Origin: Escherichia phage phiHAO1-1
Sequence record: PP079211.1
Reading direction: 5' to 3' (one strand)
DNA length: 40,137 nt
The notes under the pieces were generated by a model. That model saw nothing but the letters and a program-made list of their open reading frames with translations, was not told the origin of the DNA and did not search any database. Below are positions 1,538-1,885 of this stretch, piece after piece. The translations under genes were made by a program, and so were the position numbers. Position 1 is the stretch's first letter. Each line of letters opens with the position of its first letter.

Positions 1538-1885
1538 ATGACTGCTAAAACTCGCAATGTATTCTCGTTAGCATTTAAACTCAACGTTGTTGAATACTAC
1601 ACCTCTCTGCCTGAGGGAGTTATGGATAGGGTGACGGAAACCGCCCAAAAGTTCGGGGTGGGGACGAGTTCGGTGAAGCGCTGGTTTACTCAGTATAACC
1701 GTGGTGAGCTTAACATGGAAAACGCTATTGCGGTAAGTCGCAGTCCCTCTAAGGTAATAACAGGGGACACATACCACCTTGCAGGAAAGGACTTCAAGTC
1801 CAAAGACGAGGCGATACGCTATGCGGTTGAGCTTGCTGGTGGTCTTACTGTGACCAAGATGACAACCATCGCGGTGGAAGTGTAG
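1538..1885 (+). CDS. Early DNA-binding protein with IS3 OrfA-like helix-turn-helix (HTH_Tnp_1-like)
   Basis: 115 aa; residues about 8-55 (FSLAFKLNVVEYY ... VTETAQKFGVGTSSVKRWFTQYNRGEL) fit the F-S-x-E-F-K / GVS-x-STL-x-W-x-x-QY pattern of IS3/IS911 OrfA N-terminal HTH; GAAGGA RBS. Confidence 0.6.
   Translation: MTAKTRNVFSLAFKLNVVEYYTSLPEGVMDRVTETAQKFGVGTSSVKRWFTQYNRGELNMENAIAVSRSPSKVITGDTYHLAGKDFKSKDEAIRYAVELAGGLTVTKMTTIAVEV

Follow-up and report, generated by a model that had tools for sequence, protein, structure and literature searches.

The early regions of T7-like phages concentrate host-takeover and anti-defence functions, e.g. Ocr, SAMase, gp0.7, gp0.4, gp0.6 and gp1.2, while most of the other small genes found there are unexplained. 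Several T7 proteins, namely gp5.7, gp0.4, gp0.6, gp2 and gp5.5, are small, non-essential and act on host functions, and it is to these that we liken the 115-aa protein of a Kayfunavirus described here, whose own function would by analogy be of a similar kind. It has the early-region location in common with gp0.4 and gp0.6, whereas gp5.7 is the product of a middle gene with a winged helix-turn-helix (HTH), unlike the early 115-aa protein. Searches of the 115-aa protein against T7 gp0.4, gp0.5, gp0.6A and gp0.7 and T3 gp0.6, gp0.65 and gp0.7 revealed no homology. The gp5.7 protein is reported to be a small DNA-binding, HTH-like protein that represses host RNA polymerase promoters on the phage genome and shuts them off (PMC5569994).

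The second group of described systems comprises the proteins with an HTH_Tnp_1 domain (PF01527), i.e. the OrfA proteins of IS3 elements (e.g. IS911 OrfA and IS2 InsA) and the accessory TnpA of IS66, with 2jn6 (Cgl2762) and 2rn7 (IS629 OrfA) as solved examples. In IS911 OrfA a leucine zipper follows the HTH. The Brinker DNA-binding domain (PF09607, 2glo) and the N-terminal domain of CENP-B (1hlv) belong to the same HTH class and resemble the 115-aa protein in aa 5-60 only; both are nuclear proteins of eukaryotes, and the match is due to a common homeodomain-like, transposase-derived fold and not to orthology. HTH proteins often do not bind DNA sequence-specifically. The overall architecture is reminiscent of AcrIIA1 and the Aca-Acr fusions of phages, which are encoded in accessory regions and combine an N-terminal HTH with a small C-terminal effector domain; we know of no sequence relationship between them and the 115-aa protein, and of no need for autorepression in the early transcription of T7-type phages. 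A transposase-class HTH is already known in kind. What is new at the present locus is the definition of a two-module family, the autonomy and stronger constraint of its C-terminal module, the conserved adjacency to a kinase gene, which is precisely lost here, and a polymorphic slot bounded by RNA hairpins.

RESULTS

A protein-coding gene in the early region of a K1F-like phage

The window, i.e. the whole analysed stretch of 40,137 bases from Escherichia phage phiHAO1-1, is essentially the complete genome of a K1F-like, T7-type phage of the genus Kayfunavirus; over the first 6 kb it shares 92-97% identity with Citrobacter phage SH3 and several Escherichia phages, and every gene lies on the + strand. 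The 115-aa ORF (Table 1) begins with ATG and has exactly the translation given in an earlier note on this DNA, including the two motifs singled out there, F-S-L-A-F-K-L-N-V-V (aa 9-18) and G-V-G-T-S-S-V-K-R-W-F-T-Q-Y (aa 40-53). In comparison with the close homologues of SH3 and GW1, the dN/dS ratio of the C-terminal half amounts to 0.07-0.18, and in distant homologues the synonymous sites are saturated while the protein can still be aligned. Judged by these comparisons, the ORF is a real protein-coding gene rather than a chance ORF. The minus strand also has a mirror ORF (1568..1906), but stop codons break it up in distant homologues. The GC content of the gene equals that of the genome.

Table 1. 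Coordinates of the features discussed, in the window unless another record is named
Feature	Position	Strand	Basis and remarks
Sigma-70-like early promoter candidate, TTGACA-18-TAGTAT	459..488	+	Consensus scan only; position analogous to T7/T3 A promoters
Third hairpin copy, upstream of ocr, R0.3-like	597..655	+	Fold, alignment, covariation
ocr	671..1006	+	
Weaker sigma-70-like candidate, CTGACA-16-TG-TAAACT, just before upstream hairpin	1449..1476	+	Consensus scan; position analogous to T3 'B' promoter
Upstream putative RNase III-type processing hairpin	1463..1520	+	-21 kcal/mol, z -3.1; begins at stop of preceding 41-aa ORF
Shine-Dalgarno sequence GAAGGA	1525..1530	+	7 nt before ATG; read from sequence
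CDS of 115-aa two-module early protein, including stop codon	1538..1885	+	ORF, homologues in T7-like phages, purifying selection
N-terminal module (aa 1-58), predicted three-helix homeodomain-like HTH, transposase class	1538..1711	+	Helices 11-23, 31-39, 43-54
C-terminal module (aa 59-115)	1712..1882	+	Most conserved part; matches no curated family
Junction lacking the gp0.7-type kinase gene (~735 nt) present in GW1, SFPH2 and ESh23	1885..1886		Three-way alignment of window, GW1 and EFA-1, and kinase homology
Downstream putative RNase III-type processing hairpin	1884..1945	+	-22.4 kcal/mol, z -3.7; follows kinase gene in GW1 and EFA-1
T7-type RNA polymerase gene	2686..5367	+	
Short kinase gene, GW1 (L016)	2851-3585		
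Short kinase gene, EFA-1 (L015)	1772-2506		

Downstream of the gene there follow, in this order, a 34-aa ORF, a T3 gp0.6-like ORF, a 108-aa ORF and the RNA polymerase gene. The gp0.6 homologue (window 2000-2266, putative start) shows 38% identity to the T3 protein (E=1e-8). The 108-aa ORF just before gene 1 (window 2263-2589) belongs to PHROG 7066 and is kept in most Kayfunaviruses; it matches no Pfam family and does not resemble the shut-off domain of gp0.7. On the upstream side, an ORF at window 1148-1339 (putative start) is a homologue of gp0.4, the FtsZ-inhibitor family, with a weak match to T7 gp0.4 (E=9e-4), and its relatives carry Pfam Phage_T7_GP04. Elsewhere in the genome, the DNA ligase gene (6103..7245) is overlapped at its 3' end by a 153-aa HNH_3 endonuclease ORF (window 7175-7636, Pfam E=1.5e-22), which probably represents an inserted homing endonuclease. 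The tailspike (window 33247-36441) is a complete endosialidase with End_beta_propel (E=2e-220) and a Peptidase_S74 chaperone domain, and the phage is therefore specific for the K1 capsule, like K1F. Several ACCTACAGTC(T/A) copies in the left terminal region (window 100-200, at 114-126, 129-144, 154-166 and 183-198) are probably part of a concatemer-junction or terminal-repeat region.

The N-terminal module is a transposase-class HTH

The best Pfam match of the 115-aa protein is BrkDBD, the Brinker DNA-binding domain (E=5.6e-5; its 23.4 bits are exactly the gathering score), followed by weaker matches to HTH_23, HTH_28 and HTH_Tnp_ISL3 (about 2-4e-3). The comparison with PF01527 that the earlier note had proposed gave a divided answer: the HTH class was borne out, but the window protein alone stays below threshold (HTH_Tnp_1 E=0.055, 14.1 bits, cut-off 24.1). 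Four homologues pass this threshold (P0026 with 27.6, P0031 with 24.4, P0033 with 34.1 and P0040 with 40.4 bits), and HTH_Tnp_1 is found at E<0.01 in 8 of the 25 family members. All matches in NCBIfam are partial and sub-threshold, and they all fall on the N-terminal HTH of IS66 accessory TnpA, IS3, IS630 and IS481 transposases. The specific IS3/IS911 OrfA identity claimed earlier thus cannot be maintained, the similarity being spread over the HTHs of these several IS families.

In an AlphaFold2 model built from a 27-sequence alignment, the HTH helices reach pLDDT values of 78-90, and aa 1-58 are predicted to adopt a three-helix fold like that of the IS3-type OrfA proteins of known structure. 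A profile search among PDB sequences retrieved Brinker (E=0.0049) and then SETMAR, Cgl2762 and TnsB; a Foldseek search against the PDB gave no significant match (best E=0.27). The N-domain is basic (pI 9.6). Profile matches and model together indicate that aa 1-58 are a homeodomain-like HTH of the transposase class, at family/superfamily level. A DNA-binding module, as drawn in the earlier note, is likely as far as the HTH is concerned, but the HTH covers only half of the protein, and the C-terminal approximately 57 aa had been overlooked.

Signs of an insertion sequence were sought around the gene, and here the earlier observations hold: inspection of the downstream ORFs revealed no transposase, and there is no credible inverted-repeat pair, the flanking repeats being direct and corresponding to RNA hairpins. 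Unlike PF01527 proteins, the 115-aa protein is not followed by an overlapping orfB (DDE transposase) of IS3 type, the A6G slippery motif AAAAAAG is absent from the whole window, and no leucine zipper follows the HTH: aa 59-115 contain no leucine heptad, and the model shows a helix/hairpin/helix/tail arrangement instead, i.e. an unrelated beta/alpha module. Also in contrast to IS3 OrfA, which occurs in multiple copies in bacterial chromosomes and plasmids, the family is absent from the 185,579 species-representative cellular genomes searched.

The C-terminal module is the more conserved and autonomous half

The alignment of 25 homologues has 36 invariant columns, none of which falls outside aa 56-115. 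The difference between the two halves is most pronounced in the comparison of the window with pO2, where the C-module is 84% identical at the amino acid level (dN/dS 0.16) and the N-domain only 34% (dN/dS 0.60), and where nucleotide homology begins precisely at the domain boundary; two very different HTH variants thus share one C-module within a single genus. Among close relatives the synonymous divergence of the C-module exceeds that of the N-domain, and the conservation therefore acts on the protein level.

The C-module also occurs without the HTH. In three contigs from at least two samples it forms a 56-aa gene of its own after the SAMase gene. In IMEP24 (L018 1111-1671) it is joined in frame to a full-length Ocr, giving a protein of 186 aa recorded as 'DNA mimic ocr', and in gp0.2 of Dev2 (L017 759-1076) to an N-terminal SAMase-like fragment (105 aa, recorded as 'SAM-dependent methyltransferase'). 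In P0028 it is joined in frame to the N-terminus of a gp0.4 homologue, and in P0006 to the 41-aa upstream ORF. Other family members carry N-terminal additions, namely a second HTH (P0040, P0055) or a long extension (JJY1), while Phoria, which belongs to a different subfamily, has retained the HTH and the 'NAIAVS-KP' linker next to a tail that has diverged. The in-frame fusions may have arisen by recent deletions and have no function; as protein databases would show in-frame remnants only, the evidence from fusions is biased.

In the model, the C-module starts with a short helix (60-67), continues with a beta-hairpin (79-81, 84-86) and another helix (89-99), and ends in a beta-prone tail. Its pLDDT of 57-81 is too low for a fold assignment; these values were obtained with the more diverse alignment A4, the shallow alignment A1 giving 34-65. 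Three of eight C-modules match DUF2188 (PF09954) in a stretch of about 20 residues (13-15 bits, E=0.03-0.12, below the gathering threshold of 22 bits), a weak resemblance at sequence level that we treat as a lead and not as membership. A link of the uncharacterised DUF2188 family to bacterial defence operons has been reported (bioRxiv 10.1101/2022.04.27.489752). A PDB profile search with the C-module yielded nothing below E=1. Several apparent matches were rejected: the SH2 domain of SHP2, the best PDB profile match (E=1.1), is similar at motif level only; a LysM3 match of the 115-aa protein (E=0.038) is absent in every other member; and repebody/LRR proteins in a PDB phmmer search are spurious, with repeated 'SLPEGV-D-VTE' matches to the LRR consensus. 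The C-module was also searched against 1.84 billion protein representatives, where genuine members of the family were retrieved together with giant repeat proteins. The latter, each with 4-11 matching stretches, were discarded as relatives as well, their scores adding up from low-complexity beta-strand matches ('SIAVSGN-VHV', 'VTGDIQHLAG'); their Pfam content consists of BNR/sialidase-like, DUF285/DUF5018 and ice-binding beta-roll repeats.

Hairpins and candidate promoters of the early region

The gene is flanked by two of three direct copies of an element of about 55 nt (Table 1). Each copy begins at, or close to, the stop of the gene before it and folds into a stem, an internal loop and a second stem (about -21 to -22.4 kcal/mol, z -3.1 to -4.5). 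The copies align with the annotated RNase III sites R0.3, R0.5, R1 and R1.1 of T3, with which they have the upper stem AGGUC...GGCCU in common, and a joint alignment shows compensatory changes in 11 of 20 consensus pairs. Based on the fold, the alignment with the T3 sites and the compensatory changes, we read the flanking elements as putative RNase III-type processing hairpins, as in the early mRNA of T7 and T3, at which the transcript would be cleaved. Rfam contains no family for the hairpins or for anything else in the window. Early-gene cassettes are bounded by the hairpins, at which recombination could plausibly add or remove a cassette.

An exact phage-promoter core, CACTATAGG, first occurs at 2605, downstream of the HTH gene; upstream of it there is a near-match, GACTATAGG, at 320-328, which is probably phiOL-like. 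By analogy with the T7 and T3 A promoters, the early region is probably transcribed from the stronger of the two sigma-70-like candidates. Since the exact core occurs only downstream and this sigma-70-like site lies upstream, early transcription of the HTH gene by the host polymerase is likely, in line with the earlier note, which took it for an early gene. The exact core (window 2590-2613) precedes the RNA polymerase gene by about 75 nt, and the same core occurs at eight other intergenic sites. To our knowledge, T7 has no phage promoter just upstream of gene 1; with a CACTATAGG promoter at 2590-2613, the transcription of gene 1 would be under positive feedback.

A phage-only family

Homologues of the 115-aa protein were found in about 25 of 50,697 phage records, and every record that was checked or taxonomically labelled belongs to the Autographiviridae. 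Among 5.8 billion proteins the family forms 34 clusters; where a cluster has a long contig this is of about 40 kb, the other clusters being represented by 1-14-kb fragments only. A pattern and tblastn scan of 185,579 bacterial and archaeal genomes, one per species, detected no relative. Within the Autographiviridae the gene is held in the early region across at least five genera, and every context examined is an early region of Autographiviridae type. On the basis of these searches the family is a phage-only one.

The nearest homologues (96-97% amino acid identity) are those of the Shigella phages SFPH2 and ESh23 and of the Cronobacter phage GW1. In UniProt the SFPH2 and Phoria homologues are named 'Transposase', an NCBI metagenome record labels one homologue 'SiR5 protein', and in GenBank the gene is a 'hypothetical protein' or its fusion derivatives and relatives are mislabelled. 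The literature searched contained no functional study of any family member.

Adjacency to the gp0.7 kinase gene and a polymorphic slot

The earlier note had placed the gene where T7 has its kinase and had reported no gp0.7 homologue in the window. The latter was confirmed: tblastn with the kinases of T7, T3, P1723, VLCpiA3d, L004 and EFA-1 gave a best E of 1.7. The 115-aa protein itself shows no similarity to gp0.7 of T7 or T3 (E>2). The former needs correction, as in relatives the HTH gene lies directly upstream of the kinase gene and is thus its usual neighbour and not its replacement. In SFPH2, ESh23 and GW1 a 244-aa gp0.7-type kinase (PHROG 15752, E=1.9e-110; 32-40% identity to the T7, T3 and P1723 kinases) directly follows the HTH gene, in GW1 after only 2 nt, and distant members with 33-46% identity are likewise found directly upstream of a kinase in the Foetviruses P1723/SRT7 and in three groups of T3-like metagenomic contigs. 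In the Przondovirus VLCpiA3d the kinase is retained, and the HTH-family gene lies before ocr, away from it. In a three-way alignment of the window, GW1 and EFA-1, the hairpin that comes after the kinase stop in the latter two is found immediately behind the HTH stop codon in the window; as the kinase is absent here, the HTH gene directly adjoins a hairpin that is normally located 3' of the kinase.

Four states of this slot were observed: HTH gene plus kinase (GW1), kinase only (EFA-1 and about 40 other records), HTH gene only (the window, SH3, Penshu1, TM1, ASO2B, BUCT788 and Mt1B1_P3) and neither gene, with a single hairpin (phiHAO2-2). By this comparison of sequences, both genes are dispensable cassettes delimited by hairpins. 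In phiHAO2-2 a 266-nt deletion (L002 1003-1200 vs window 1003-1466) joins a 61-aa ORF (1003..1188) to the 41-aa ORF (1341..1466) and removes the gp0.4 homologue, a further in-frame loss of an early-region cassette. The short Kayfunavirus kinase (244 aa), present in a minority of the genus (about 43 phage records), is without the C-terminal third of T7 gp0.7 (359 aa). The idea that the 115-aa protein substitutes for the shut-off domain missing from the short kinase was rejected, since phages with long kinases (384-411 aa) carry the gene too. Also rejected as a kinase was gp03 of Vec13 (L014 1506-1838), a 'protein kinase' in GenBank, which is really an Ocr homologue (Pfam ocr, E=3.8e-32).

DISCUSSION

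We favour the view that the 115-aa protein is a DNA-binding accessory early protein with its C-module as effector or oligomerisation unit, and that it acts as a small, DNA-tethered effector of host takeover or counter-defence; we give this reading a probability of roughly 0.55 and rank it above a plain repressor, a kinase partner and an IS remnant. The protein would be a non-essential, phage-specific early product with two separable modules, its accessory nature following from the variation of the slot between both genes, either one and nothing. It would be synthesised early from host RNA polymerase transcripts of the left end, and its cistron, bracketed by two hairpins, would be released by RNase III as a separate mRNA. 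The basic HTH of aa 1-58 most likely binds DNA, and aa 59-115 most likely carry the function proper, i.e. the contact with a conserved host or phage partner and/or oligomerisation.

That the protein is instead a plain transcription regulator, in which the HTH reads specific sites such as host-type early promoters, the C-module only dimerises, and host RNA polymerase is repressed or retargeted, appears unlikely to us. The HTH fold and the basic N-domain would suit such a role, the beta-rich tail LTVTKMTTIAVEV could, according to the model, pair between subunits, and gp5.7 offers a precedent (PMC5569994). A simple dimerisation domain, however, would be expected neither to outlive the HTH nor to surpass the DNA-reading head so clearly in conservation, whereas the C-module persists alone or joined to Ocr, a SAMase fragment or gp0.4, and is combined with two HTH variants of 34% identity in a single genus; moreover, no candidate operator was identified.

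Concerning the C-module itself, one may speculate that this small unit is a portable effector domain, not described before, of the early regions of Autographiviridae, and that it targets a conserved host factor, possibly a defence component, by inhibition or mimicry; the faint similarity to DUF2188 is the sole pointer in this direction. Recombination would shuffle it between carriers (two HTH types, Ocr, the SAMase fragment, gp0.4) or leave it alone, and the HTH would serve as a tether to DNA-bound targets. We regard this proposal, taken as a whole, as doubtful; given the low pLDDT and the lack of a significant fold or family match, any role of the C-module is a guess.

A partnership with the gp0.7 kinase, as its substrate, targeting subunit or regulator, which would make the window gene an orphan heading for loss, is suggested by the adjacency of the two genes in Kayfunavirus GW1, SFPH2 and ESh23, Foetvirus P1723 and three T3-like metagenomic contig groups, and by the 2-nt gap in GW1. 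We nevertheless consider it improbable: the gene is intact without the kinase in at least seven isolates and the window (dN/dS about 0.18, measured against SH3 only), about 40 records have the kinase without the HTH gene, the VLCpiA3d gene is located upstream of ocr, and gene order in T7-like early regions is generally conserved anyway. Finally, the view that the gene derives from a genuine insertion sequence, as an orfA fragment that survived IS decay and does nothing for the phage, draws on the resemblance of the N-domain to IS OrfA/TnpA HTH domains and on the 'Transposase' names of the SFPH2 and Phoria homologues, but is effectively refuted by the missing DDE ORF, inverted repeats and A6G frameshift site, the absence of homologues from bacterial and archaeal genomes, the maintenance in the same early region of at least five genera under purifying selection, the genome-like GC content and the nature of the flanking repeats, which are RNase III-type hairpins that flank other early genes too.

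The favoured reading, a DNA-tethered effector, does not overturn current understanding, nor does any other result reported here. The 115-aa protein takes no part in transposition, and its gene is no evidence of a mobile element; labels such as 'Transposase', 'SiR5 protein', 'F-box domain-containing protein', 'SAM-dependent methyltransferase' and 'DNA mimic ocr' mislead safety screens of therapeutic phages. The C-module, rather than the HTH, is the selected part of the protein and offers a concrete 55-aa target for interaction screens. The early slot of Kayfunaviruses is polymorphic (HTH gene and kinase, kinase only, HTH gene only, or empty), with RNase III-type hairpins as its bounds, and thus provides natural, isogenic-like variants with which the contribution of the kinase and its neighbour to host range can be tested.
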